A stretch of 64,000 nt of DNA, taken from NCBI GenBank assembly GCA_965224195.1, contig OZ245040.1, positions 1,920,001 through 1,984,000 of the forward strand, read 5' to 3'. The position numbers were made by a program, and so were the translations under genes. The stretch is from Nitrosopumilus sp. (lineage in GTDB: Archaea; Thermoproteota; Nitrososphaeria; Nitrososphaerales; Nitrosopumilaceae). Positions 18,032 to 31,535 of this stretch are shown one piece after another (position 1 is the stretch's first letter; each line of letters opens with the position of its first letter). The notes beneath the pieces are model-generated. The model was not told where the DNA came from. It did not search any database and saw only the letters and a list, made by a program, of their open reading frames with translations.

Positions 18032-18549
18032 ATCTAATAATTACTTGTCCTAGGCATCTTGAACCAGAAACAGAAGAGGAATTAATCAATATTTTAGAAG
18101 AATTTGGAGATTCTGATGTTAAAGTCACAATCACTAACATGTCAGGTATTTTGACTGCTGAAACAAAACTTGACCCTATAGAAGTTGTAAGAAAAATTAA
18201 GGAAATGCTTCTTGATGAACCATGGAGTGTGAGATATTGTAAAAGAATCATTCCAATACAGAAAGTTGTTGAATCAAATATCGGAGAAATCGAAAAAAGT
18301 GTTGCAGAATTATCAAATCAAATTTTAGATGAGGAGACATATAGGATATCAATTGAAAAAAGAAATTCAGATTTATCAAGTAAAGAAATTATCACAAAAA
18401 TTGCCAATAATATAAAAAATAAAGTTTCTCTAGAATTTCCAGATAGAATTCTATTAATTGAAATTTTAGGTAATAAAACAGGTGTTTCTATTCTAAAAAA
18501 ATTAGATATTCTAAGTACAGAAAAAACCAAACGAAGTATGTCAGAGTAA
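18028..18549 (+). CDS. THUMP-domain RNA-binding protein
   Basis: RIIPIQ, YRISIEKRNS, KVSLEFPD. Confidence 0.88.
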   Translation: MNLIITCPRHLEPETEEELINILEEFGDSDVKVTITNMSGILTAETKLDPIEVVRKIKEMLLDEPWSVRYCKRIIPIQKVVESNIGEIEKSVAELSNQILDEETYRISIEKRNSDLSSKEIITKIANNIKNKVSLEFPDRILLIEILGNKTGVSILKKLDILSTEKTKRSMSE

Positions 18550-19314
18550 CACAGTAGCTTTTTCAACTAAAATATCAGCCAAAGGGTTTTTTGAAATAAT
18601 TGAATCAGTATGTTTTGTTGTTATTTTGAATTGTTTCTTTAGAAAAGACTCATTATTTTTTGAAAACATTGGACTAGATATTGACTTTAATTCAAGATAC
18701 AATGAATTAAGAGTTTTTTTATTCCCAATTGCAATAATAACAAAATTAGTATTAAATTTAATTCCAACATTTTTAATTGCATCAGAAATTTGTGTAATTA
18801 AAGCAAATCTCATTAGAATGTCAGTTTCAAGTTTGTTTGAAAGTAAAATATTATTTTTTTCAGATTCAATAGATAATGAAATAATTTTTTTTAAATGATG
18901 ATTATTTAGAATATAATTACTAGATACAGCTTGAAGTACAACTTTAGGATATTTTTTTCTCAAGTCATCGATGAATTTCACATTAATTGATTTTTGACCT
19001 TTAATTTCAATAACCTGAATTATTTTTTTAGAAAATTCAAAATTAACTTTTTTTGATGATCCACCATGAATCACAGGGATTATACTTACAAGATCATTTT
19101 CTTGTATTATTGTAGATGTACCATACATTGCAGAAGAATCAGCACCATTAATTGCAATTAAAACATTATCAGTATCAAGATTTGGTGTATCTACAGGTTT
19201 TAGTTTCAGTAGTAAATTAATCAATTCATGAATGGTTAAATTAGATTGATCAATTTTTAATTGTTCTACCGGGAAAGATTTTTTTGCACCACCTACAAAT
19301 TTTACAGTAAACAT
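18541..19314 (-). CDS. ubiquitin-like (MoaD/ThiS/Urm1) - Cgi121 fusion
   Basis: beta-grasp N-domain ending IPVIHGG, then Cgi121-like L.SNKLETDILMRFA.ITQISDAIK..G. Confidence 0.85.
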   Translation of the reverse strand: MFTVKFVGGAKKSFPVEQLKIDQSNLTIHELINLLLKLKPVDTPNLDTDNVLIAINGADSSAMYGTSTIIQENDLVSIIPVIHGGSSKKVNFEFSKKIIQVIEIKGQKSINVKFIDDLRKKYPKVVLQAVSSNYILNNHHLKKIISLSIESEKNNILLSNKLETDILMRFALITQISDAIKNVGIKFNTNFVIIAIGNKKTLNSLYLELKSISSPMFSKNNESFLKKQFKITTKHTDSIISKNPLADILVEKATVLL

Positions 19315-19353
19315 ATCTATCTAATTTAAAATTAAGAAATTATATTTAATTTA

Positions 19354-19719
19354 TTATTCGGTTTCTTCTTCAGCAGTCTTAGAAGATATTTCTTCAGTGG
19401 TTGCCTCAACAACTGTTTCGGTTGCTTCAACAGTTTCTACACCTTCTTCTGCAACAACATCTTCAGTCAATTTTATTTCAGATTTTTCTTCAACTTGTTG
19501 TTCATCTTTTGATGCTGTAATTCTAGCCTGTTTAGCTTTTTCTTCACGTACTTCTTTTTTGATAAATTTAGTAATATAACCTGCAATTTCGTTTTTCAAA
19601 CCTTTAGAACGTACTATAGAAACTTGATCTAAGGCTTTTTTGTTATCGGCAAAATCTTCGCCAAATTTGGTTTTATGATCTACTAGAACTTCATATGAAA
19701 GTCGCTTAATTCTATCCAC
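19354..19719 (-). CDS. rps17e: 30S ribosomal protein S17e with acidic tail
   Basis: IKRLS...F..DF..NKK...SKGLKNEIAGYIT. Confidence 0.93.
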   Translation of the reverse strand: MDRIKRLSYEVLVDHKTKFGEDFADNKKALDQVSIVRSKGLKNEIAGYITKFIKKEVREEKAKQARITASKDEQQVEEKSEIKLTEDVVAEEGVETVEATETVVEATTEEISSKTAEEETE

Positions 19720-19741
19720 TAACCGATTACATGAGGGGGGT

Positions 19742-19757
19742 ATTTTATACCTATATT
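19742..19757 (+). repeat. putative attL, 16-bp direct repeat
   Basis: identical to 28105-28120; CTAAAAA follows shortly after both copies. Confidence 0.8.
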
Positions 19758-19911
19758 AGACTAAAAACGTGTTTGTGTAGGCATAAAAATAATAAAACCG
19801 TAATTTCAACCTATAGGACATTATCTTTAATATTATTTCAATGATTACTACAAATAAATAATATTTTGAGGCTTAATTGTACACTAACAAATAAAGTATA
19901 TAACAATATTT

Positions 19912-19961
19912 GGTGCTGTTTCGTTGATGGGACATCTTGTGCCTGTTTTGTGTCGGGACAT
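19912..19961 (+). repeat. left terminal inverted repeat
   Basis: GGTGCTGTTTCGTTGATGGGACATCTTGTGCCTGTTTTGTGTCGGGACAT; GGGACAT occurs twice. Confidence 0.85.
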
Positions 19962-19966
19962 AAAAT

Positions 19967-20269
19967 TTAGGAATTACTTGTAATCACAGCATTAGAATCT
20001 ACAACAGTATTACCTGATTCTTTATTCAAATTACCATTTACAATACTATGTATAACTAACTCTCCTCCCCGATTTGTTACATTTCCTTTAACTATTCCAT
20101 GTAAATCACATTTAGCAAAATTATTAATTATTAAATCACCATTAATGATTTCATTTAGTATCAAATAGGAATTTTCCTGAACAGTTACATTTCCATCTAT
20201 GATTCCTCTTATTCTCAATTCATGTTTTACAAAAAGATCATTATGAATTGTATCATTAATTTCTTCCAT
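19967..20269 (-). CDS. bactofilin/polymer-forming beta-helix protein
   Basis: repeated (I/V)xG(N/D)(V/L)x(V/I) units. Confidence 0.7.
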   Translation of the reverse strand: MEEINDTIHNDLFVKHELRIRGIIDGNVTVQENSYLILNEIINGDLIINNFAKCDLHGIVKGNVTNRGGELVIHSIVNGNLNKESGNTVVDSNAVITSNS

Positions 20270-20274
20270 GTTAT

Positions 20275-20553
20275 TTATTTAAGATATTTCCAAACTATTG
20301 CAAATACACAAGGACTAACAAGAAAATGACTAATTAGATACCCAGTTGTATTACTAACAACAAATGATTGAAAATTAGTTAATCCTGTTACTTCAGGGTT
20401 AAACCAAAGAGTAGTTCCTATGAATACTATAATTGTGGTTATGATTTGCCAAAATAAGTGAATTCTAGCTTTTGATTTTTTGATGCTCTTTGTTTTTGAT
20501 TTCATATTTCTAAAGATTTTTTTCAGCCCATTTGACAGCCTTATATCCTGCAA
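20275..20553 (-). CDS. small two-TM membrane protein
   Basis: basic N-terminus and two hydrophobic helices; likely start at ATG ~20505 (MKSK). Confidence 0.6.
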   Translation of the reverse strand: MQDIRLSNGLKKIFRNMKSKTKSIKKSKARIHLFWQIITTIIVFIGTTLWFNPEVTGLTNFQSFVVSNTTGYLISHFLVSPCVFAIVWKYLK

Positions 20554-20839
20554 ACAAGCCCAAGGCTATGCCTCCAAGAGTAACTAATCCTTTAGGAATA
20601 CCTGTTTCTTCCTCAACATAATTTGAGGCATGATTAATTGTTCCTGATGAAAAATCAGTTGCATTAAATTTGTCAATATGCACATATCCTATTTGAGAAT
20701 CTTTCTCAAATATTGCATGTCTATTACCATATTGCTCAAGTTCTCTAAACTCTTCTTTACCATCAGTTCTGAAATAACTGGTATCTTTCCACTGACCTTC
20801 AATAATTTCAAAACGATAAATTGAATTATTCATTTTCAA
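20510..20839 (-). CDS. hypothetical protein with H/HxD/H motif and C-terminal Gly-rich TM anchor
   Basis: RHAIFE...VHIDKFN...NH, then LGGIALGLFAGYKAV. Confidence 0.65.
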   Translation of the reverse strand: MKMNNSIYRFEIIEGQWKDTSYFRTDGKEEFRELEQYGNRHAIFEKDSQIGYVHIDKFNATDFSSGTINHASNYVEEETGIPKGLVTLGGIALGLFAGYKAVKWAEKNL

Positions 20840-21239
20840 CCATTAACTCCTGTGTTTTTAATTCTGAGGTTTTTTCTTTATCCAATACTAATTGAATTGG
20901 AATTTCTGGTGTTTCATCTTGAATCTTAGTTTTAGCAACTAAGAAAGCGAATTTTTCTAAATGTTGAATTGCCTCAGAATTAGAATTAATTTTATACATT
21001 TTAGAACGACCTGATGTTCTTGTATTGTCTATCAAACCTAATTTTTCTAATTTTGGTACTGCTCGATAAATATGGCGAGTTGAGATTCCAGCATTTCTTG
21101 CAATGTCTGATTCGGAATAATCAAACTCTCTGAAGATCAACAAGAAGTCTAAAATTTTTGCAGTAGACGTACCCAAGAAAAGTTCACCTAATACACCCAA
21201 TTGGGTTTTACTAAAAATGGAGTTATCTTGTTCTGACAT
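20826..21239 (-). CDS. winged-HTH regulator (ArsR/TrmB-like)
   Basis: KILDFLL..REFDYSESDIARNAGIS...TRTSGRSKMYKIN. Confidence 0.85.
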   Translation of the reverse strand: MSEQDNSIFSKTQLGVLGELFLGTSTAKILDFLLIFREFDYSESDIARNAGISTRHIYRAVPKLEKLGLIDNTRTSGRSKMYKINSNSEAIQHLEKFAFLVAKTKIQDETPEIPIQLVLDKEKTSELKTQELMVENE

Positions 21240-21282
21240 AGTAGATCGTTACACTATTTCAAAATCATAAGTATATTTACCT

Positions 21283-21314
21283 TGTCATATCATTATGACA
21301 TGCACGTCATAATG
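21283..21314. promoter_or_regulatory. overlapping inverted-repeat operator candidates between divergent genes
   Basis: TGTCATA-tcat-TATGACA (21283-21300) and CATTATGAC-atgcac-GTCATAATG (21291-21314). Confidence 0.6.
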
Positions 21315-21355
21315 TTTATATCTAATCAAAAGATGAGTAAAGCTGAGGGGAAAAG

Positions 21356-22042
21356 ATGACAGACTATTGTCTTACTGTATTGAGGGTTTTACTCCACTTA
21401 GGTAGAGTAGGAAAGGATACCATTACTGTTAGTCATTTTCTATCTTTTGTGCCTAGTGTAGTTTCTAACAGAATTCTCACTACAATCACAGAATTAGCCC
21501 ATTTAGGATTCATTGAAAGAACATCGGATGATAGAATATCCATTAGAAGAAAACGAAGAGATGATGTTTGTAGATTAATGGATCCTGAACCAGATCCTGT
21601 CATTAAAAGCATAAAACCAATCGAAGATACAATTCCAAAATCATTTGATAAAACTCCATTTTTGATTACAGAAGGAGGTCATAAAGTAAAAGGGGTTGTT
21701 GACAAATATGCATTTCATAAAAATAAATTTGATTCAAAAATTATCGTGTATTTAGTTTCAGATAATCAAAAGAAAAGTACGATTAGAATAGGAAGTTTAA
21801 CTGATAGAAATTCATTGTATAGACGAGCAATTCTTGGAATTAATTCTGAATTTGGTACTACCGTATTTACTAAAGCAATGATGAATAAATTAGGTTCATC
21901 AATAGTAGGAAATAGACAACCAACTAAAGCATTGATAGATATTATGATTTTTGATGGTTATGTAATTCCAATTGATGATAAACATTTTATGAGAACTTCA
22001 AAAGGAGTTCCACCTGCTAACGGTTTAACGATTGAACGTTAA
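21356..22042 (+). CDS. hypothetical protein with wHTH-like N- and C-terminal segments
   Basis: 228-aa ORF; ITELAHLGFIER and LIDIMIFDGYV helix-wing patterns. Confidence 0.7.
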   Translation: MTDYCLTVLRVLLHLGRVGKDTITVSHFLSFVPSVVSNRILTTITELAHLGFIERTSDDRISIRRKRRDDVCRLMDPEPDPVIKSIKPIEDTIPKSFDKTPFLITEGGHKVKGVVDKYAFHKNKFDSKIIVYLVSDNQKKSTIRIGSLTDRNSLYRRAILGINSEFGTTVFTKAMMNKLGSSIVGNRQPTKALIDIMIFDGYVIPIDDKHFMRTSKGVPPANGLTIER

Positions 22043-22298
22043 ATCATAATATCGTTTTTCAATTTATTCTAGATCTATTTTCTGGAAGTGGCGGTGTCTC
22101 ACGTTCCTAATATACCACTTTTTGATTTTGTTGAATGTGAAGGTTCCCCACTTCAAATACTTCTCTTTAGATCAAAATAATTATACCATGTTATTGTTAG
22201 AAAAACCGCTCGTTAAATGGATGATTCAAAAAATGTCATTTATGAAAACTGCTGGACTAAATATCAAAATGGAGATAGTTCACTCATGAAGTTTTCAA

Positions 22299-23423
22299 TT
22301 AACTTTGACTTGCATTTTGAATCAGGGTCTTCCACTTGTCAGAACCCTTCACATCTACTCCACAAGCATCAGCAGGAGTCTTCCCATCCAAAACCATGTG
22401 AGGGCGTACGTAATTATGATAAATTTGGCATCCATCAAATATTGGTGAGTCTTTGCTCTTTACTCCCCTCATTACTTTCTCTCGGTCTCAAAATTCTCCA
22501 TTGAGTCTTTCCATCTTGTTGTTGTTTCTATCTCCTTTCAGTGAGATGTGTCTAATGTGAATTGGTGAGCCTTTCTTTACTGCACCATATTCCTTTTTGA
22601 AAGCGTCTCTGTATGCCTGTAATCCATCTGTAACAAAAACTCGTGGTTTTGTCTCCATCGAGTTCTTTGCCATTTTGAGCAAGTTCCTAGCATCATGTTT
22701 GAACTTGGAATCTGCCACTTCTTGAGCAATCCAGAATCGAGTCTCATCATCCATTAGGGCAAAGAGGTATTTCTTGTCTCCCTTGACTTTGACATATACT
22801 TCGTCTGCTCTCCAAGTATCTCCTACTTGTGGCACGATGGTATCAAGATGGGTTTTCATCAATTCAGTGTATTTCTTTATCCACTTGTAGACAGTAGAAT
22901 GAGCCACATTGACACCTTGCAATCTGATGAATTTCTGAACATTTCTCAAGGATTCTCCTGTAAAGTATAATTGCATGGCAGAAGTGACGATTTTTGGATT
23001 TACTGATAATTTCTCAAATCCTAGATTGAATGAAAATCTATTTTTACAATTTTTACAAGAAAATCTTTGAAGATCATAATTCTTGTTGTGTCTAATTCCA
23101 TGCTTTACAATGTTACATGAAAAGCATTTTGGGCATTGGGAATTATTCACTTCTTCAATTATAATTTTATTTCTAATTCTTACTTCTTCTCTTATCTTGA
23201 TACTGATTTGGATTGCTAGGGCGTGTTTGCAAGTGACCTTTCTATACACATGATCAGGACAGGTACACTTCCAACCAAATTCAGTTGAGAAAATATCATA
23301 GATTCTATTTGTTGCCAAAGATTTCATGTGATAATGATTATCGTTAATTCTGAGAATGTGGGTATTGGGATTATCTAGTAATTTTTGTGCCCTTTCTTCT
23401 CTTGAAATGTACTCTTTTACCAT
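22299..23423 (-). pseudogene. IS6-family-like DDE transposase with SWIM and Zn-ribbon domains; premature TGA at 22488-22490
   Basis: SWIM CTCPDH..CKH, CPKC/CKNC, WRADE, VTDGL, MERLN; frame continues past TGA (DREKVMRG...YHNYVRPH...TPA) to TAA at 22299. Confidence 0.9.
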
Positions 23424-23432
23424 ATATTGTAA

Positions 23433-23484
23433 TAGGTACCTAATAATATAAACATTTAGGTACCTAACATAAAGTAGGTACCTA
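23433..23484. promoter_or_regulatory. three perfect TAGGTACCTA palindromes
   Basis: 23433-23442, 23457-23466 and 23475-23484, between the divergent transposase and AbrB-like gene. Confidence 0.75.
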
Positions 23485-23519
23485 CACTTTATTAGGAACT
23501 TTCAACTAAAAATATTGAT

Positions 23520-23684
23520 TTGAAATTACAAAAACAACTTTCTAGAAAAGTTGGAAATGAGGAATATGCTAAATGGGTTGTTGTTATTCCTCCAGAAAAA
23601 ATCAAAGAATTAGGCTGGGAAGAAGGCGTAGAACTTGAAGTTGATCCAAAAAGTGATAAACTTATTTTGAAACCGAAGAAATAG
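23520..23684 (+). CDS. AbrB/MazE/SpoVT-like DNA-binding protein (54 aa), absent from ORF track
   Basis: MKLQKQLSRKVGNEEYAKWVVVIPPEKIKELGWEEGVELEVDPKSDKLILKPKK. Confidence 0.85.
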   Translation: MKLQKQLSRKVGNEEYAKWVVVIPPEKIKELGWEEGVELEVDPKSDKLILKPKK

Positions 23685-24378
23685 GCTTTTTCAAATCTTC
23701 AAAAAATGTTTCAAACCTAGTTGATAAACTAGTTGAGTACTCTTGGATTTGTTCCATTTGTTTTACTGTTACTTCTAAAATAGGGTATTTCATATCTGAT
23801 TCTTCTCGTGTTTTTTCGACTTCTAAGATATCTGGAATAAACCAAACTTGGGGATTCCCACCAACAGATTCATCGAGATTAAAGTGAATGACATAGTTAA
23901 TTGTAGCAAATGCAATTTTTGCACCCTCAATCATTGTAAGATCTTTATGCCATAATTGTCTTAACAAAAATGAGCCATATGGTTCACCACTTCCTACCGT
24001 GATGTATGTTTTGATTGGTTCTGCAATTCCGTTTGAAGTTGCAATATTGAATAATTCGGCATTCATCCCTGCCCTGATTCCAATTACGACATCCATTCCA
24101 CCACCTCTTGAATAATATCGGTTATGAAGTTCTAAACTTCTATCTTCAACATATTGAAAAAATTCTTTGTCATTTGTTATTTCATCATCTCTAACTTTAG
24201 TTGTAAGCTCATCGGAAAATCTTTCTAAGATGGCACTGGTTCCAGCACCACCCATAATTACATTAGGTAAAATTTTTACGAGTTTTTCTCTATTAGATGA
24301 AACACTACCACGAAAAATTTTTGTATCTGCAACTAAAACAACACCATCAATACATCTCATTCCAATAACATATGTCAT
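23662..24378 (-). CDS. proteasome beta-subunit-like Ntn hydrolase without propeptide
   Basis: M-TYVIGMRCIDGVVLVADTK, EKL, GGAG, TVGSG, DESVGG; start placed at ATG 24378. Confidence 0.88.
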   Translation of the reverse strand: MTYVIGMRCIDGVVLVADTKIFRGSVSSNREKLVKILPNVIMGGAGTSAILERFSDELTTKVRDDEITNDKEFFQYVEDRSLELHNRYYSRGGGMDVVIGIRAGMNAELFNIATSNGIAEPIKTYITVGSGEPYGSFLLRQLWHKDLTMIEGAKIAFATINYVIHFNLDESVGGNPQVWFIPDILEVEKTREESDMKYPILEVTVKQMEQIQEYSTSLSTRFETFFEDLKKPISSVSK

Positions 24379-24450
24379 TTCCTTTTTTATTGGACTTTGG
24401 TACCTAATAAAGAGATCCTTGTTAAACATAGTTTTTAATTAAAACACCTC

Positions 24451-24500
24451 ATGTCCCGACAAAAAACACGAAGAAAATGTCCCATCAATCGAACAACACC
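24451..24500 (-). repeat. right terminal inverted repeat
   Basis: reverse complement GGTGTTGTTCGATTGATGGGACATTTTCTTCGTGTTTTTTGTCGGGACAT. Confidence 0.85.
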
Positions 24501-24843
24501 CTAGCTTGTCATATATGATTTTTGTAAACTGCCCAACCATTGCAGGGTTTGGGGCCTCATCATATCTCTTGAGAGCATGCAAGACTCTCTGATTAATTTT
24601 GTACAAGAGCACAGCCTTTGCATCAATGACACTGCACATCTCAGAATCCAAGTCGCCAAGCGGCGTTTTATTCTCAAGATCAAGTTGTCTTTTCTCCATG
24701 TGAACCTGGTTGTCAGACTTGCCACAGCTTTGGTCTTTGCACCAGTGATCATTTACCTTGTATATGGCATCACCGGCTCTGATTTGTACACTGCAAACCT
24801 TGCACGTGCTATCAAACCTTGAGGCCATAGATACGGCAGACAT
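24501..24843 (-). pseudogene. virus-like Zn-finger protein truncated by the transposon
   Basis: SRFDSTCKVC..I.AGD.I...WC...C motif; the ORF's last ~20 codons are read from the TIR. Confidence 0.55.
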
Positions 24844-24846
24844 ATC

Positions 24847-25140
24847 CTATTGCATCCTCCTCAAAAACTCTAGATATTTTGTTGGCGAGTTGTTGGTTGA
24901 TTCAGGCGAGTAGAACATTTGGATTGTCTCAAGCATCTCATCTGCATAGTCTGTAAACTTTACTTTATGTATGCGGCATTTTCCGTCTTCACATGACTCT
25001 ATGATGACGATTTGATTTGCAATAAAATTTGTCTCCTCATAATGCATAAAGGCATACATTGCAGCCTGCAAATACCACACATCTCGTCGTTTGCCGTAAC
25101 GAAGTTTTCGTGTTGTTTTAAAAATATTGAAAGTGACAAT
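24847..25140 (-). pseudogene. C-terminal fragment of a PD-(D/E)XK phage-type exonuclease
   Basis: FKTTRK...WYLQAAMYAFMHYEETN...QIVII (QxxxY motif); N-terminus missing. Confidence 0.6.
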
Positions 25141-25284
25141 GATATCCAGAGATGAATTTGTGACAGATCATAACAATGGCTATGTAAAATAATACATTAT
25201 AAAAATAATATGATCATAAAAATCAAAATAATCTAGTTTCACTAACATATGTGCAGAAATAAACATTATACCATAAAGTAATAC

Positions 25285-26213
25285 ATGAGTATTTTAATAA
25301 CCAAACAACGCGGTTCTTTATTATTTGAAGAATCGATAAAATCAAAATACACCAAAAAGAACTATACATCACATCTTAACCAATTCTTGACATTTGCAGA
25401 TTTTGATTCTCAAAACCAGTTGTTATCAGTACCACATTTAGAATTACAATACAAGCTAGAAAATTATCTTATAGAATTGAAACGTACTACAAACCCCAAT
25501 TCCATACCCTCAAAGTTTCAGGGCATAAAACATTTTTGTGTTATGAATGAAATTAATCTAAATTGGAATATTATTGTCAAAATGTTCCCACAAAAACAGA
25601 AATCTCAAAGCTTGAGAGCATGCACTACAAAAGAAGTTAAAAATTTAGTATACAGTACAGCAAATCTTAGAAATAAGGCGTTAATTCATTTCTTTGGATC
25701 TACTGGTGCTAGAGTAGGTGTCTTTGATCATGATTTATCAATGAGATATATGATGAAAATGCCCTATGGTTGTACAGCTGTATTGCTCTATGCTGGAGAC
25801 CTAGAAGAATATTGGACATTTCTCACACCACAAGCAACAAAAGTAGTAAATGCATATCATGACTATCGTAAAAATAATGGTGAAATATTTTACAAAGATA
25901 CACCAATATTTGCAACTTGTAAGTTTCATCCTAAACAGATAGGATGGAGTGGTGTTCGTTCTATGATATATAGAACAATACAAAAAAGTAACATTACAAG
26001 ACTAAAGTATGATAATCGTTTTGATGTACAAGCTGATCATAGCTTTAGAAAGCGATACAACACCATACTAAAATTGGATACTCTGTAAACTATAACATTG
26101 CAAAGAAACTAATGGGCCACAAAAATGGTCTTGATGGAGTTTACTTTACCCCAACATTAAAGGAACTATTTATAGAATTTAAGAAAATAATGCATAAAAT
26201 AGAGATCAGGTAA
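25285..26213 (+). pseudogene. tyrosine recombinase/integrase, frameshifted near 26080
   Basis: STGARVG and HSFRKRY; shifted frame gives SVNYNIAKKLMGHKNGLDGVYFTPT to TAA at 26213. Confidence 0.9.
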
Positions 26214-26255
26214 ACTTACAATTAATTAATAAACCACAAATAACAACAACAAATA

Positions 26256-26459
26256 TTGTCTAATGAAAAACCAAATTTTGTTTCTGCTAAAATAACTATG
26301 CCTGACGGTAAAGAATATGAAGTAATATTACCTGCTAAAATTTTTAGTACTGGTCGTGCTGGATTTTATTCTCAAATCCCATCAATGGCATACGATAATG
26401 ATGTTTATGGTGGGCAAATCCAAATTTGGAAAAAATCTGAGAAAAAAGAACAAGATTAG
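26256..26459 (+). CDS. small hypothetical protein
   Basis: 67 aa, KIFSTGRAGFY motif. Confidence 0.6.
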   Translation: MSNEKPNFVSAKITMPDGKEYEVILPAKIFSTGRAGFYSQIPSMAYDNDVYGGQIQIWKKSEKKEQD

Positions 26460-26478
26460 CAAAATTTTAATTGTAGAA

Positions 26479-27180
26479 TTAGTCTAGTTTTACACGAATT
26501 TGACCTGTAAGTAATTTTTGCATTAAACCTTTTTTGAGCCTTTCTAGTTTTTCTTTATATTCTTGATTTTTTTGTATATATGCATCAACTCCTGATAGAA
26601 TTGATGCAATTTTCTTCCGCTCTTTAACATCGTTTGGTACAAAGATTTTTGCATCCGATACAACTGAACTGGTAATTGCAGGATATGCCATTCCTTCCAT
26701 AAATGGAATAAAATTTAATTCAAAAAAATGACTTTTGAAATAATTAAAAAGAAAACCTGTATCAGAAATAATCTTTGATCTTATTACTGTAAATCCTGTT
26801 GAACAAATAAGGTTATGTTTTTCAAATATAATTAATGAAAATGCTTTGAGATAAGGACGGACTGTTGAAACAATAATGTCGTTGTGCTTTATAATTCGCT
26901 GAGCTCTACTAGGTCGTTTATCTTTATTAAATTTTTTCAATTTTGTAACTTGAAAATTCTCTATGGATAAAATATCAATATACTCAATTTTGTCAAAGTT
27001 ATAATTATCTTTGATTTGTTCCGAATTCACTTTAGTTAAATCTTTTATTTGAAATTGTTTCCATTCCTTAGGAATCTCAATCTCTTTCCCAAACAACCAT
27101 TTTACCGTCTTAAATTTACTATGCCCAATACCTCTGGTTAACAGCTTCTGCATCAGCCCTTTCTTCAACCTCTCAGATTT
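26479..27180 (-). pseudogene. hsdS: Type I restriction-modification specificity subunit, C-terminal half (single TRD)
   Basis: LKKGLMQKLLT at both ends, EIPKEW, RAQR, STVRPYL, CSTGF, KIASILS. Confidence 0.85.
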
Positions 27181-27181
27181 C

Positions 27182-27721
27182 TTAACAACTGTTAGGTGAT
27201 AGTGTCTTTATTATTAGCTCTTTGATAGTTGGTTTAGTGTTCTGTTTAGATTTGTAATTGCAGTCAAGGTCAGTTACAGTTCCAGCGACTATATGACTAT
27301 CACATTTTTTAGTTTGAAAGCCTTGTGAACTGTAAAAAGGAATTTGTGACGTTAATTCTGAATTTTTAAGTGGTACCCACTGAATTTCTGTATACATTAA
27401 GGTCTTTGAACTGGGTGTTTGGAATACTTGGATAATCATCATCAGATACCCTAACCAAAATCAACTTTAAATGGAACAGGGTTAAGCATTAATAGGTTCA
27501 AAAAGTCCACCACCTAGTGTGATTATAGAAGCAGGAAGTGGTGTAGAAGATGTGGTAATTATGGTAGGAGGTGGATTTGGTATAGCAGCACCGCCACTAA
27601 AATCTTGAGAATATGCAACATTAGAAAAACCTGTGAAAATCAATAATGTAACTAGTACAGGCAAAACAAACATTCTAAGTGAGATTATAGAAGATTTCCT
27701 TAACATGAAATGATTGGACAT
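27182..27721 (-). pseudogene. fragmented secreted/surface protein
   Basis: signal-peptide ORF 27482..27721 followed by out-of-frame pieces. Confidence 0.45.
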
Positions 27722-27820
27722 AACAGTATTATTTAATTATTGTCATACAGGTTATTATCATCATGCAGGATAATAATTAAATAAAGTCATATTTTTATAT
27801 CATCATATATAGTACAACAC

Positions 27821-27967
27821 ATGCCAAAACGCGTAACAATAATGCTCGATGATGACATTGACAAAAAACTAAGAATATTACAAGCAGATAAGATTAAAAA
27901 ATCACAAAAGAGCGTTAATTTTTCACATGTAATAAATGCCACATTGAGAAAACAGTTAAAATTATGA
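27821..27967 (+). CDS. 48-aa ribbon-helix-helix protein, absent from ORF track
   Basis: MPKRVTIMLDDDIDKKLRILQADKIKKSQKSVNFSHVINATLRKQLKL. Confidence 0.8.
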   Translation: MPKRVTIMLDDDIDKKLRILQADKIKKSQKSVNFSHVINATLRKQLKL

Positions 27968-28104
27968 TCTGCCCAGAGTGTGAGACTATTTACATCGGTG
28001 ATGTAGATAAATGCACTACTTGTGGGTATGATTTTGAACAAGAAAAATAATAAATTGATTTTTAATAATAATATCAAATAAATTTGTCTAAACTATACTG
28101 GAAC

Positions 28105-28120
28105 ATTTTATACCTATATT
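28105..28120 (+). repeat. putative attR, 16-bp direct repeat overlapping the tatD stop codon
   Basis: identical to 19742-19757. Confidence 0.8.
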
Positions 28121-28869
28121 CCTAAAAATGAATTTGAATTCTTTTCCAACATAGATGCCATATCATCAAAAGATTTACCTAGAATTTTTGAAGCACAAAA
28201 AATTACACTCGGAATAAAGCTAATTTGTCCTGATTTCATTTCAAAACATCTAGAAAATCTTACAGGTCCGTCAGTTTCAACAAGAATTTGAGATTCGCTA
28301 GTTTTTGACAATAAAGTTTGCTTGTCATTTGCATAAATCATTACAGGTCCATATGACACAAAAAATCCCATATCCATGGCTCTTTGAAGTTGTTTTTTAC
28401 TTCCATCAAACCAATGTAACAATGCATGTTTGGTATTATATGATGTCATGATTTCAAAAATATCATCAAGGCTTTTTCTTGAATGAATGGATACAGGTTT
28501 GTTGAATTTTTCAGCAAATGATAATAATGTTTCAAATACATGATTTTGTTTTACTATATCTTCATTTTTGTTAACATAAGTTGGATCCAATCCAATTTCT
28601 CCTATTCCAGAAATATGATCATGGTTATCTTCAATTAATTTGGAAATATTTTCAAGTTCTTCATTTACACATTCAGGATGAATTCCAATAAATGGTAAAA
28701 TTAAATTACTTTTTTTAGCAAGTTCTAATGTCTGTATTGAATTATCATAATTCATGGATACACAACACGCTTTAATTTTCAAAAATTCCATTTGTTTTAA
28801 GATAAATTCCATATCAGAAATATACTCTGGATCAGACAAATGTATATGAGAATCAAAATACCAAGTCAT
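28114..28869 (-). CDS. tatD: TatD family DNase
   Basis: DSHIH, GIHP, IGEIGLD, IHSR, LHWF, ETDGP. Confidence 0.93.
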   Translation of the reverse strand: MTWYFDSHIHLSDPEYISDMEFILKQMEFLKIKACCVSMNYDNSIQTLELAKKSNLILPFIGIHPECVNEELENISKLIEDNHDHISGIGEIGLDPTYVNKNEDIVKQNHVFETLLSFAEKFNKPVSIHSRKSLDDIFEIMTSYNTKHALLHWFDGSKKQLQRAMDMGFFVSYGPVMIYANDKQTLLSKTSESQILVETDGPVRFSRCFEMKSGQISFIPSVIFCASKILGKSFDDMASMLEKNSNSFLGI

Positions 28870-28965
28870 TTCTTCATCAATTATTCAAATAGTCTGTATA
28901 AATCGATTCCTTAGTGATATTTTTTCACTCATTATCTTTTTTCGGAAAAAATTAAAACTAAATTC

Positions 28966-29187
28966 ATGAAATCATCAGAATTGGGATTATCTGCAATGTA
29001 TAGAATTCTAAAAAAAGCAGGTGCAGAGAGAGTTAGCGATGAGTCTGCAGAGGAGTTGAGAAGGACAATTGAAGAAATTGCAGATGGTATTGCCAAAAGT
29101 GCAGTAGATATGGCCTCCCATGCCAGTAGAAAAACGGTAAAAGGTGAAGATGTAAAGTTGGCTTCTAAACCATTTAACAAATTCTAA
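28966..29187 (+). CDS. archaeal histone
   Basis: [13 protein letters not shown]...[15 protein letters not shown]. Confidence 0.95.
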
Positions 29188-29226
29188 TCTAAAGAGTTTA
29201 ATTGTTCATTTTGTGTTTTTTAAAAC

Positions 29227-29298
29227 GGTACTCTGGCAGAACGGTTATGCGTGAGCCTGCAAAGCTTATACAAGGGGGTTCGACTCCCTCGGGTACCT
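29227..29298 (+). tRNA. tRNA-Cys(GCA)
   Basis: acceptor GGTACTC/GGGTACC, anticodon arm TGAGC-CTGCAAA-GCTTA, T arm GGGGG-TTCGACT-CCCTC, U73. Confidence 0.92.
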
Positions 29299-29708
29299 TA
29301 TCCTACTATGACTTGACCTTCCATCCAAGGATGAAGTGTGCAAAAATAATCATGGATGCCTTTTTCATCAAAATTAAAAGTGAATGATTCGTATGGATCT
29401 AAATGTCCACTATCAAATAGATCAGAAGGTTCACCATAAAATCCTGAAGTGACACTGTGAAATGCAGAATCTTCATTTATCCAAGTAACTTGATTTCCAG
29501 AATCAATAGTAAATACAGATGGAATATAGCATCTATCGGCCTCCTCACATCCAGGACGAGAAGATTTTGTTGACATTATGATGTCTCCAATAACAACTAT
29601 TTCATGTTCTTCAGAAATTTTTTCGATAGAAGAATCAGAAGTGGTTAAACCAATTATTATGATTACAAAAACTGCAACAATACCAATTATAATTATTTTC
29701 TTTAACAA
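29298..29708 (-). CDS. membrane-anchored blue copper (plastocyanin/azurin) protein
   Basis: N.D...HSVTSG and YFCTLHPWM copper ligands. Confidence 0.92.
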   Translation of the reverse strand: MLKKIIIIGIVAVFVIIIIGLTTSDSSIEKISEEHEIVVIGDIIMSTKSSRPGCEEADRCYIPSVFTIDSGNQVTWINEDSAFHSVTSGFYGEPSDLFDSGHLDPYESFTFNFDEKGIHDYFCTLHPWMEGQVIVG

Positions 29709-29783: not shown

Positions 29784-31535
29784 TTGGCTCAAAACGGAAA
29801 TGGATTGTTAGAATACATACCTGGTTCACATACATTGTTAGTTCAAAAAAACTCCAGTCCACCTCTAGAAGGATTTGCAGAGAACATACAAGAAAGTATT
29901 CAAGAATACGCTGAAAATTCAAAAAGTGAAGTAGAAAAAGGGAATAATTTTCTTCAGTGGATTCTGACAAGGGTTTTTGAGGCTACTGAAGATGATGCTG
30001 CAGATGCTATTGTAGATGGAGCAAATGATCTTGGAATTGATGCCTATCTTCCAGTAGATTTTTCAGATAATACTATCAGATTATTCCAATCAAAATATGG
30101 AACATCACATTCTCTAGAAGCTATAGCTAAATTCAAAGAAGATGCACAAAGATTACTTGCAAAAGATGTAGTGAAAATGAGGCCTGAACTTGCCCAACTT
30201 GTTACTAAAATAAAAGAGAAAAATCTAAAAATAAAATGCTGTTATGTTACAGATCAAGATGTAGACTATTCAGATGACCTGGTAGAAATCATTGATCAAA
30301 AAATAATAATTCAAAAATTATGGGATAGAATAAAAAAGCCTGCAGCAGGAAAAAAATCATCAATAAAATTAGAAAGAATGTTAAGACATGAAAACACCAT
30401 TCTGGGAATTCTGAAGCTGCGTGAACTGACAGAATTTGTAAGTAAGAATAGAGATTATGTCTTTGAATCCAACATTAGACAATGGATGCAGTTTAAAACT
30501 ACAGTTAACAAAGGATTAAGAGAAACATTACAAAGTAATCCAGGTAAGTTTTTCTTTTACAACAATGGAATAACGATTGTAGTTAGTGATTTTTCAGAAT
30601 TAGGAGAGAATTTAATTGAATTACATGCACCTCAAATTGTTAACGGAGCACAAACGTCAAACTCTATTCTTGATCATTCAAAGAGAACAAAAAATATGGA
30701 TGGTTCAATGACTGTTACAATAATCAAAGCAAACGATGAAGAAGAACAAAATAATATTACAAAGTATAGGAATTCCCAAAATTCAGTTCGAGGAAAAGAT
30801 CTAGTTTCGTTAATGGATTTTCATAAATCAATTAAATCACAATTGAAAAGTTGTGGTTATTTTTATGAAATTCAAGCAGGTTCTTTTGATACAAAAACAA
30901 AATCAAAACAATGTGAATATGATGGAGACACAATATACAACAATTATCTTCCAGATAATCATAAAAAAGTCATTGTTGCAAAAGATGCAATTCAATCTTT
31001 AGTTGCAGGAATTGAACAAAGACCTACAGAAGCATATAGTTCACCAGCACAATTTCTTCCAAGAGGAAGTAAATACGATGACATATTCAATGATAATCTT
31101 AAAGACGATTATAGAATTTTACTATATCCATATCTTGTAAAAGAATTTGCAAAAAAGTCATTAAAATATGGAAAACAAGGTGGCCATAAAACAAAAAGAT
31201 ATGCAACATTATTTTTTGTTGCAGTGTATTTCAGAATTCTTCATAAAAAAATTCTAGAGTCAAAAGGGGATTTCAAAGGAGACATAAGAAAATTAGAACC
31301 TATTTTTCGCAGTTTCAAACTAAATTCTAGAATTTTAAAAATTACAGATGTGATAGTAACTAAATTTCTTGAAGATACAGTAGTTGATGATGAGATTGAA
31401 ATGGCAAACACTAAACATAATTTTTTCTCTCAACATGTATGGAATGATGCAATGCTTCGAGTAATTGATAAAAAAATTAGACAAGAGGAAGACGAAATTT
31501 TAGCATTAAAGAAACTTACATCTAGTTTATTTTAA
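29784..31535 (+). CDS. AIPR family protein
   Basis: DGANDLGIDA, QSKY, FESNIR, FFFYNNGITIV, QIVNGAQT, NSQN. Confidence 0.9.
   Translation: MAQNGNGLLEYIPGSHTLLVQKNSSPPLEGFAENIQESIQEYAENSKSEVEKGNNFLQWILTRVFEATEDDAADAIVDGANDLGIDAYLPVDFSDNTIRLFQSKYGTSHSLEAIAKFKEDAQRLLAKDVVKMRPELAQLVTKIKEKNLKIKCCYVTDQDVDYSDDLVEIIDQKIIIQKLWDRIKKPAAGKKSSIKLERMLRHENTILGILKLRELTEFVSKNRDYVFESNIRQWMQFKTTVNKGLRETLQSNPGKFFFYNNGITIVVSDFSELGENLIELHAPQIVNGAQTSNSILDHSKRTKNMDGSMTVTIIKANDEEEQNNITKYRNSQNSVRGKDLVSLMDFHKSIKSQLKSCGYFYEIQAGSFDTKTKSKQCEYDGDTIYNNYLPDNHKKVIVAKDAIQSLVAGIEQRPTEAYSSPAQFLPRGSKYDDIFNDNLKDDYRILLYPYLVKEFAKKSLKYGKQGGHKTKRYATLFFVAVYFRILHKKILESKGDFKGDIRKLEPIFRSFKLNSRILKITDVIVTKFLEDTVVDDEIEMANTKHNFFSQHVWNDAMLRVIDKKIRQEEDEILALKKLTSSLF

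Follow-up and report, generated by a model that had tools for sequence, protein, structure and literature searches.

We have identified, at positions 19912-24500 of a 64,000-nucleotide stretch of a Nitrosopumilus sp. genome (contig OZ245040.1, positions 1,920,001 to 1,984,000; this whole stretch is called the window), what is, with a probability of about four in five, a decayed copy belonging to an IS6-related lineage of DDE transposons with passenger genes, that is, of transporter insertion sequences (IS) or unit transposons. Members of the lineage have a conserved layout, in which one terminal inverted repeat (TIR) is followed by a gene for a proteasome-like N-terminal nucleophile (Ntn) hydrolase, an AbrB-like gene, a gene for a zinc-finger/DDE transposase, a variable set of cargo genes and the second TIR. 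The ends are approximately 50 bp long and are made of two 26-bp units, the outer of which starts with GGTTCTGT, and intact relatives make 8-bp target-site duplications (TSDs). The copy in the window is 4589 bp long and has eight or nine open reading frames (ORFs) inside its arms; judging from its transposase gene, it is no longer able to move itself and is not a live transposon. A preliminary description of this DNA had proposed a transporter IS or unit transposon. Its repeats did turn out to be the ends of an IS6-related element with passengers, whereas the window copy, with a nonsense codon, no TSD and a position nested in a larger island, is not a live example of one.

The limits of the element are given by two arms.

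19912..19961, plus strand: cargo-side terminal inverted repeat with tip GGTGCTGT, two 26-bp units ending in GGGACAT
24451..24500, minus strand: protease-side terminal inverted repeat with tip GGTGTTGT, within 2-4 bp of the point where homology to a multicopy module breaks off

Read base by base and without gaps, arm 19912-19961 and the reverse complement of 24451-24500 are identical at 41/50 bases. Each arm consists of two tandem 26-bp units, with the tip on the outer unit and GGGACAT at the end of each unit, and this motif stands at arm positions 18 and 44 in both arms, at a spacing of 26. The preliminary description, which had listed 50-bp imperfect inverted repeats with 41/50 matches, GG tips and two GGGACAT motifs 26 nt apart, was accurate on each of these points. 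A repeat search of 18500-26000 returned 19887-19976 and 24436-24525 as its top pair (90-nt arms, 72%), the runner-up pair being 34 nt long. When GGGACAT-N14-24-GGGACAT was sought on both strands of the whole 2,067,682-base genome, only these two arms matched, and an nhmmer profile built from both arms found one more partial copy, at 1692402-1692439 (E 1.9e-4). This copy was rejected as a second element; it is a solo remnant, near which neither a transposase nor a protease gene was seen. The two-unit design of the ends recurs in related elements (CGGGTCAT/CGGGACAT in genome G297 and TTCGGTTGATA twice at locus L042), and both window arms carry the lineage-specific features of a G at position 4 and two GGGACAT units. 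Two other readings of the arms were discarded. If they encoded a conserved peptide in their shared frame, 8 of approximately 17 residues would differ for 9 base changes, so that there is no sign of coding constraint, and a search for a plain IS of approximately 1.2 kb, with short TIRs right around the transposase gene, found none. Contigs from four sequencing runs of four studies were compared with 19300-28400; identical pieces were present in three studies besides the best-matching one, and two of them bridge the junction at the left TIR. No contig from the four runs spans the whole element or island, and such contigs are unable to show absence. Among the data sets listed as containing this sequence, none was an RNA run.

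The transposase gene lies on the minus strand.

22299..23423, minus strand: IS6-related transposase pseudogene with SWIM and Zn-ribbon N-terminus and DDE core

It is divided into a 311-amino-acid (aa) ORF (23423-22488) and a 57-aa ORF (22472-22299), which lie in one frame and are split by a TGA at 22488-22490. The in-frame TGA stands seven residues past the DDE glutamate, where 15/16 other copies of the genome have an arginine; in the 16th copy the arginine comes one residue later. A lysine or arginine after the DDE triad is part of the IS6 signature as given in the available text of a review of the family (PMC7986276); the window copy lacks it and the lineage has it. Because the TGA takes the place of this conserved arginine, the window transposase is a pseudogene and the window copy would be immobile on its own. 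The Pfam model DDE_Tnp_IS240 (PF13610, cut-off 27) is matched with 50.7 bits by the window copy and with 63.8 bits by the intact copy of G297. A Zn-ribbon module precedes the core, and the SWIM match of the window transposase is below threshold. The SWIM/Zn-ribbon/DDE transposase reported earlier is upheld as IS6-related by profiles, with the correction that the TGA at 22488-22490 breaks it. The GG tips and cTGTt motif of IS6 elements are present, as GGTGCTGT/GGTGTTGT in the window copy, as GGTTCTGT in most sister elements and as GATTCTG or TGTTCTG in some. The 8-bp duplication of IS6 elements is absent at the window copy; it is perfect in elements c6_7 and c2 of the same genome, in G209, G297, L039 and L061, and is matched at 7/8 positions in L047. 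Unrelated genes share one TIR pair with a single transposase, as in transporter IS and unit transposons.

Two further genes and the DNA between the divergent AbrB-like and transposase genes complete the conserved part of the element.

23662..24429, minus strand: proteasome-beta-like Ntn hydrolase, conserved core gene (255/238 aa)
23520..23684, plus strand: AbrB/SpoVT-like DNA-binding protein of 54 aa, conserved core gene
23433..23485, in the spacer that separates the divergent AbrB and transposase genes: three TAGGTACCTA palindromes (23433-23442, 23457-23466 and 23475-23484)
about 23445-23452: TATA-like TTTATATT box amid the TAGGTACCTA copies, which together form a predicted operator and promoter

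The preliminary description had counted the Ntn hydrolase and the AbrB-like gene as cargo. Both belong instead to the conserved backbone, and only the segment from the 3' end of the transposase gene to the far TIR varies. The likely start of the protease is the methionine at 24378 (MTYVIG), as placed by the gene callers, which gives a protein of 238 aa with a threonine right after the methionine. The protein matches PF00227 with 57.3 bits against a cut-off of 22.4. In an alignment of 19 members, the threonine follows the methionine in every row that reaches that far, residues D18, K32, G129 and G131 do not vary, and between the glycines lies a mostly conserved serine, in what is mostly a G-S-G motif. 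An AlphaFold model (mean pLDDT, the predicted local distance difference test, 89.9) and a PDB sequence search placed 20S beta and alpha subunits on top, the top Foldseek matches being 20S beta subunits (E 1e-12); a C-terminal helix of approximately 50 residues in the model has no counterpart in 20S subunits. The protein would, with these residues and this fold, probably be active as a threonine hydrolase. Its identity to the other, housekeeping beta-like subunit of the genome is 27%, and its score on the archaeal 20S beta equivalog TIGR03634 is 44.9 bits against a cut-off of 224. A match to the PHROG 'peptidase HslV family' (E 6.4e-7) is the sole link to HslV that any tool provided. Twenty relatives were found in an index of 5.8 billion proteins, all of them unnamed or hypothetical, and no relative was found in the viral contigs searched. 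Matches at E <= 1e-10 occur in 12/301 Nitrosopumilaceae genomes, five of which look like housekeeping subunits. A complex prediction of the protease with the AbrB-like protein scored 0.00 in two runs without controls and speaks on neither side as to binding, since enzyme-substrate pairs rarely pass this test.

The AbrB-like protein has 13 orthologues, which are 53-83% identical, and consists of a 54-aa DNA-binding domain alone, without a toxin-binding tail. Matches to TAGGTACCTA number three in the 64-kb window, against 0.06 expected, and all are in the 96-bp spacer 23424-23519; a relaxed form of the palindrome has six matches genome-wide, all inside the two AbrB-bearing elements. In the spacers of 9/9 elements from four phylum-level groups, TTAGGTACCTAA or a close variant of it occurs two to four times, and in most of these elements two palindromes flank a TTTATAT box that precedes the transposase start by approximately 20-30 bp. 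The site predicted for the repressor is a palindrome of 12 bp that is conserved. A further promoter is predicted within the protease-side TIR. Because both the gene and the palindromes are conserved, we infer that the AbrB-like protein is a repressor of the transposase promoter, a role predicted from sequence.

Related transposases occur in this genome and in other archaea inside inverted repeats of approximately 50 bp that start with GGTTCTGT, in units of 2-5.7 kb. The order TIR, Ntn hydrolase, AbrB, transposase, variable cargo, TIR is shared by ten elements, whose sources are Nitrosopumilaceae, Bathyarchaeia, Micrarchaeota and a single contig with a Bacteroidales bin. The following relatives show ends or duplications.

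G209 element, same genus: 3294 bp, imperfect TIRs of approximately 50 bp, TSD TGTTTTAG
G297 element, another genus: 3826 bp, TIRs identical at 50/50 positions, TSD AAATTAGA
L039 element, Bathyarchaeota: 5180 bp, TSD TCTCACCG
L061 element, Bathyarchaeia: 2833 bp, TSD GAAGTTAG
L042 element, Bathyarchaeia: TIRs identical at 54/54 positions, no clean duplication
L047 element: 1966 bp, TIRs identical at 51/52 positions, TSD 7/8

Intact copies with identical ends exist in G297 and at L042. In the window, G209 and G297, the AbrB-like gene converges with the protease gene and diverges from the transposase gene. In G209, G297, L039 and L061, the protease gene starts approximately 70-150 bp from one TIR and variable genes fill the stretch to the other. 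It had been suggested that a TIR-transposase-AbrB backbone should be sought with differing cargo; such a backbone does recur, for example in these four elements, with TIRs and TSDs. Among the 11 non-self protease loci in Nitrosopumilaceae genomes, four (those of G209, G297, G102 and G160) have both other genes within 1.5 kb. A profile of the Ntn protease was then run against one genome per prokaryotic species and gave 38 loci, with a transposase near 10, AbrB near 11, either near 16 and both near five (L039, L042, L046, L061 and L062). All 16 linked loci are among the 25 with E <= 1e-13, and, apart from two contigs with bacterial bins, they come from Bathyarchaeia, Micrarchaeota, Pacearchaeota, Nitrososphaerales, Nitrosopumilales and Nitrosomirales. 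Across elements, AbrB is 53-83% identical, the transposase 32-57% and the Ntn protein 25-50%. At L048, L050, L053 and L054, the protease is linked to a transposase in other gene orders and without AbrB, which argues for a functional link rather than inherited synteny.

Several of these loci have features of their own. L046 (2.2 kb) is binned as Bacteroidales and L053 (44.6 kb) as Chloroflexia, and they are either mis-binned archaeal DNA or real bacterial members. L055-L058, from Bathyarchaeia, have the protease and AbrB genes and no transposase in the DNA examined, and may be decayed or domesticated copies; at L057 the N-terminus of the protease ORF seems to be cut short, and the gene after AbrB is that of a TrmB-like regulator. 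Remnants were found in two genomes. In G017 (L011 3079-3933), a TIR-like sequence is followed by a DUF3467-like ORF of 110 aa and a transposase fragment 81% identical to that of the window, and in G003 a solo TIR stands at the syntenic site (L013 4596-4647). On one side of this site is a Dam-like methylase region close to the amo genes, on the other a gene for a B12-binding-type regulator.

The genome that contains the window also carries sister elements. By tblastn, approximately 25 places have related transposase sequence, and the flanks of 13 other transposase copies were searched for inverted repeats. Seven copies or pairs are enclosed by inverted repeats 23-68 bp long, at spans of 1.2-5.7 kb, and five of these repeat pairs start with a GGTTCTGT-like sequence.

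c4, genome C1 786717-789463 (L016): 2747 bp, TIRs identical at 54/54 positions, transposase frameshifted
c15: 3402 bp, TIRs identical at 47/48 positions, unknown proteins, AbrB-like gene beside the transposase
c12: about 3.65 kb, IS1595-type transposase as an extra gene
c6_7, genome C1 1423758-1429477 (L019): 5720 bp, perfect 8-bp duplication GTAATCTG
c2: about 2.35 kb, perfect 8-bp duplication AATAATTA
c14: 2.3 kb
c3: 1.2 kb

Comparison of the flanks showed no target duplication at c4, c15, c12, c14 and c3. The cargo of c4 is a MunI-type restriction enzyme and an MT-A70 methylase, a restriction-modification pair on a single transposon, and defence cargo therefore does ride on this transposon family. 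Element c6_7 contains a DUF3800 gene and an IS5-like DDE_Tnp_4 gene besides two IS6-like transposase genes, one of them split, and may be a nested or composite form.

A number of observations weigh against reading 19912-24500 as a member of an IS6-related transposon lineage. Its transposase being a pseudogene, the mobility of the window copy is read from its relatives alone, and the copy has no TSD (caatattt on the left, ctagcttg on the right). The NCBIfam IS6 model NF033587 is by far the best family match, yet both the window copy (116.6 bits) and the intact 369-aa copy of G297 (123.2 bits) score under its cut-off of 125. The TIRs are approximately 50 bp long, against 15-20 bp in the available text of the IS6 family description (PMC7986276), and the element has 4589 bp and eight or nine ORFs, against approximately 0.8-1.7 kb and the transposase alone. 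Harmer and Hall, in the text available, hold that long and archaeal 'IS6' are not true IS6/IS26 and should leave the family (PMC6807381). The AbrB assignment comes from best matches that are both sub-threshold, namely PF04014 (21.4 bits against 24.7) and TIGR01439 (19.5 against 28.3). Of the 38 Ntn loci, 22 (the 13 weakest matches and nine of the 25 closer ones) have neither a transposase nor AbrB in the DNA examined, some of their contigs being short. Lastly, part of the cargo of the window copy has a counterpart in genome G009, where neither TIRs nor a transposase were detectable in 12 kb around it.

This cargo occupies the bay between the 3' end of the transposase gene and the left TIR (19967-22042), where five ORFs are found, one of them divergent from a minus-strand run of the other four.

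19967..20269, minus strand: bactofilin-like protein of 100 aa (PF04519, E 2.8e-4, 21.5 bits against a cut-off of 27.9)
20275..20553, minus strand: membrane ORF of 92 aa with hydrophobic stretches, no family match
20510..20839, minus strand: ORF of 109 aa with a C-terminal hydrophobic anchor
20826..21239, minus strand: winged-helix regulator of 137 aa, first gene of the minus-strand run
21356..22042, plus strand: protein of 228 aa without a known family, divergent from the winged-helix gene

The nearest Protein Atlas clusters of the bactofilin-like protein (0.94-0.95, approximately 101 aa), one of which is named as a polymer-forming cytoskeletal family, are weak evidence for its assignment. The 137-aa protein has TrmB, FUR and HTH matches below cut-off and is a generic winged helix-turn-helix (wHTH) protein. 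Profile searches of Pfam, PADLOC, PHROG and NCBIfam gave no family for the 228-aa protein, and the Protein Atlas gave nothing named. It occurs in 12/301 Nitrosopumilaceae genomes and is thus a sporadic accessory gene. The wHTH/228-aa pair is 86% identical at the nucleotide level to the stretch of G009, in which the wHTH gene is followed by an 85-aa ORF with a C-terminus similar to that of the 109-aa ORF. As this stretch has no detectable TIRs in 12 kb, the cargo module also exists outside the transposon; two GGTTCTGT matches in G009 are unconvincing as TIRs, lying inside long ORFs approximately 8 kb apart. The cargo segment differs among the window, G209, G297, G017 and c15. Against PADLOC-DB 2.0, the 137-aa protein gave generic wHTH matches and one chance-level match (E 0.002), and the protease, the AbrB-like protein and the 228-aa protein gave nothing. 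We regard the bay as a small regulated membrane-associated module and propose no further function. The ORFs between the arms are those that had been listed earlier, with a broken transposase and a familyless 228-aa protein as corrections; the divergent wHTH pair is upheld for its 137-aa partner, the wHTH call for the 228-aa protein having no support from any tool. Nor does the suggestion that the cargo is a defence module find support, PADLOC giving no match to it beyond the generic wHTH.

An island of 8.36 kb (19758-28104), integrated between the genes for S17e and TatD, encloses the whole transposon.

19742..19757: att-like border of the island on its left, one copy of the direct repeat ATTTTATACCTATATT of 16 bp
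28105..28120: right copy of ATTTTATACCTATATT, right border of the island
25285..26088, plus strand: tyrosine-recombinase-like gene of the island
24497..25123, minus strand: multicopy two-gene module of 627 bp, with a 134-aa Cys-rich ORF and a 77-aa ORF

ATTTTATACCTATATT occurs exactly twice in this genome and once in five relatives. The island is absent from 5/7 relatives examined (G015, G012, G003, G005 and G004), in which S17e abuts TatD and tRNA-Cys. In the other two, G017 and G014, unrelated sequence begins at the same point, and the site, in a shared promoter region, may therefore be a hot spot of integration. With its border repeats and an uninterrupted site in relatives, the island has the marks of an att-bordered integrated element, and this larger integrated island accounts for the presence of the window copy at the locus. 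The recombinase-like gene has XerA, XerC and XerD matches far below cut-off (XerA 42 against 220 bits), and a partial hsdS gene and small ORFs are also present. The recombinase-like gene, a 67-aa ORF and hsdS are found together twice, at 25285-27168 of the window and at genome C1 about 1092000-1103300; the second locus, where hsdS is present in several pieces and the recombinase in two copies, resembles recombinase-driven shuffling of type I specificity genes. Rfam models matched only tRNA-Cys over 19000-29500. Outside the island, past tRNA-Cys and a plastocyanin-like gene, is a 583-aa AIPR (abortive-infection-type) gene at 29784-31535.

The two-gene module has five copies elsewhere at 89-94% and a sixth at 79%, at genome C1 about 282972, 794457, 1156267, 1511483, 1624723 and 1696730. 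Their flanks differ, and the module resembles a cassette that is conserved in mosaic mobile elements. At the outer tip of the right arm, the TIR severs the 134-aa ORF at about codon 115, and the ORF ends in residues encoded by the TIR. A plain insertion with duplication into this ORF was rejected; its lost 3' part, which is known from copies a, b, c and e, is absent left of 19912. The lost part not being on the other side, either an insertion followed by adjacent loss or a rearrangement is indicated. Adjacent deletion and rearrangement are typical of replicative intramolecular events in IS26-type elements.

For the lineage as a whole, the transposase would bind the two 26-bp units of each end, and the element of 2-5.7 kb would move as a whole by an IS6-type DDE pathway. 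The AbrB-like protein would bind the TTAGGTACCTAA palindromes that flank the TATA-like box and would keep transposase expression low, and the threonine protease would act post-translationally on the transposition machinery by removing either the repressor or the transposase. This last step is the weakest and is possible rather than likely; the conserved linkage and the position of the gene are what suggest it. The window copy would have reached its locus, or stayed there, as part of the 8.36-kb island. That an IS6-related lineage with a built-in protease and AbrB circuit for the control of transposition extends over several archaeal phyla is a tentative proposal. In such a circuit the repressor would shut the transposase promoter through TTAGGTACCTAA and its destruction by the protease would set off a burst of transposition; alternatively, the protease would take the transposase off the strand-transfer complex and thereby allow the cointegrate to be completed by replication. 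In bacteria, removal of transposase from the strand-transfer complex is left to host unfoldases. If the proposal holds, this would be, within the literature searched, the first transposon-borne proteasome homologue and the first prokaryotic DDE transposon controlled by a protease.

Other explanations have been weighed. The protease and the AbrB-like protein could form a selfish maintenance or conflict module, be it toxin-antitoxin-like addiction or anti-virus defence, that is kept for retention of the transposon and in which AbrB would be the antidote or brake. A sub-threshold match of the AbrB-like protein to the MazE-antitoxin Pfam family is consistent with this, as are the toxin-antitoxin pairs that are integral to Tn3-family transposons (PMC7157771, available text), the restriction-modification genes of c4, and six loci (L038, L041 and L055-L058) with the Ntn and AbrB genes and no transposase in the DNA examined. 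We nevertheless consider it unlikely: the two genes are convergent and form no operon, the AbrB-like protein is without the tail that would bind a toxin, the palindromes lie on the transposase promoter and not upstream of the protease gene, PADLOC matches neither protein, and five loci pair the protease with a transposase in the absence of AbrB. It is more doubtful still that the proteasome-like gene is a host-derived hitch-hiker, a spare or specialised proteasome subunit with no function for the transposon. In its favour, the proteasome-beta fold and the active-site residues are kept, the available text on a thaumarchaeal integrated element lists proteasome-beta-like genes with no adjacent transposase (PMC6563490), and 22/38 loci are without transposase and AbrB in the DNA examined. 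Identity to the housekeeping beta subunit is, on the other hand, as low as 27%, the archaeal beta-subunit model is matched at 44.9 bits where 224 are called for, no more than about 6 of 300 Nitrosopumilaceae genomes have the gene once probable housekeeping matches are set aside, and its position beside one TIR is kept across phyla while the cargo changes. Last, the notion that the arms are leftovers of separate insertions or regulatory repeats around ordinary island genes and a simple transposase/AbrB IS would accord with the missing TSD, with the location of the unit wholly within an island that has its own direct-repeat borders and recombinase-like gene, with solo TIR-like copies (at 1692402-1692439 of the same genome and in G003 at L012 and L013) and with the 137/228-aa pair of G009, and is very improbable given the same order, ends and perfect 8-bp duplications in G209, G297, L039 and L061, the lineage features shared by both arms, and coding sequence that reaches to 6 bp from the left arm.

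The established picture of IS6-type elements is that of minimal IS with one gene, which mobilise other genes only in pairs. As a decayed member of a passenger-carrying lineage, the element of the window belongs to a branch of different design, with long two-unit ends, a zinc-finger transposase, two conserved accessory genes and a variable cargo bay, which in one sister element holds a complete restriction-modification system. This branch is present in ammonia-oxidising archaea, Bathyarchaeia and Micrarchaeota, and we did not find it described in the literature searched. It provides a route by which genes can spread in archaea for which the catalogued mobilome consists mostly of integrase islands and one- or two-gene IS, and a case, open to testing, in which a selfish element would have recruited a protease of the proteasome family.

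Stand-alone proteasome homologues are familiar as cellular proteins. HslV, Anbu and BPH are Ntn threonine hydrolases of the proteasome-beta fold with a Met-Thr start, and they are not known to be linked to transposons. The protease described here has its best Foldseek and PDB sequence matches in archaeal and eukaryotic 20S subunits, not in HslV. In the literature searched, which did not include ISfinder and most subscription journals, neither a transposon-borne proteasome homologue nor a cargo-bearing thaumarchaeal IS6 element was described. Krupovic et al. (2019; PMC6563490), in the text available, count 244 IS in 20 thaumarchaeal genomes, typically of one or two genes, label thaumarchaeal IS6 copies by approximately 54% identity to ISDsp3, and list a proteasome-beta-like gene in one integrated element beside ParB-like genes. 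Passenger genes are unmentioned in the accessible part of a 2026 survey of archaeal IS.

A small DNA-binding protein within a mobile element has parallels. As far as the available texts go, Arc in IS605-family elements is reported to repress gene expression of its own element (10.64898/2026.09.24.754181), and toxin-antitoxin pairs of Tn3-family transposons place a small DNA-binding protein beside the transposition genes (PMC7157771). These systems differ from ours in having HUH and Tn3-type DDE transposases, other repressor folds and no protease partner.

Among IS6-type elements, the available text of the IS6 review describes TIRs of 15-20 bp with GG tips and a cTGTt motif, reports Zn-finger extensions in clostridial clades only, names ISDsp3 as the only passenger-carrying member and lists no thaumarchaeal members (PMC7986276). 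ISDsp3 (ISfinder; Dehalococcoides sp. BAV1) is, like our elements, of the IS6 type, longer than classical IS6 and equipped with a passenger gene. As compared by its description only, it is a single copy of 1456 bp with one hypothetical passenger and no intact Zn finger (PMC6807381, available text), whereas the elements here have 2-5.7 kb, two-unit ends of approximately 50 bp, an intact SWIM/Zn-ribbon N-terminus and up to eight genes, including a protease. As a conjecture, the passenger of ISDsp3 may be the AbrB-like gene. The long clostridial 'IS6' (clade h/i of Varani et al.; clades VII/VIII of Harmer and Hall; ISCpe7 and ISTet2) share the Zn-finger N-terminal extension, the IS6-type DDE core and a TIR consensus longer than that of IS26. 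By the parts of their description that are available, they differ as single-gene elements of 1.2-1.8 kb from Clostridia, for which no conserved accessory genes or cargo are reported.

Classical IS6/IS26 elements (IS26, IS257 and IS6100), in the available descriptions, have the DDE triad followed by lysine or arginine, GG tips with cTGTt and 8-bp duplications, and our sister elements show the same tips and duplications. The preliminary description had put classical IS6 at approximately 0.8 kb with short TIRs, in agreement with the 0.8-0.9 kb and 14-20-bp TIRs that set them apart from our elements. They have one gene and mobilise others only as IS pairs, in pseudo-compound transposons; in the lineage described here, by contrast, a single unit holds the genes between long two-unit ends.

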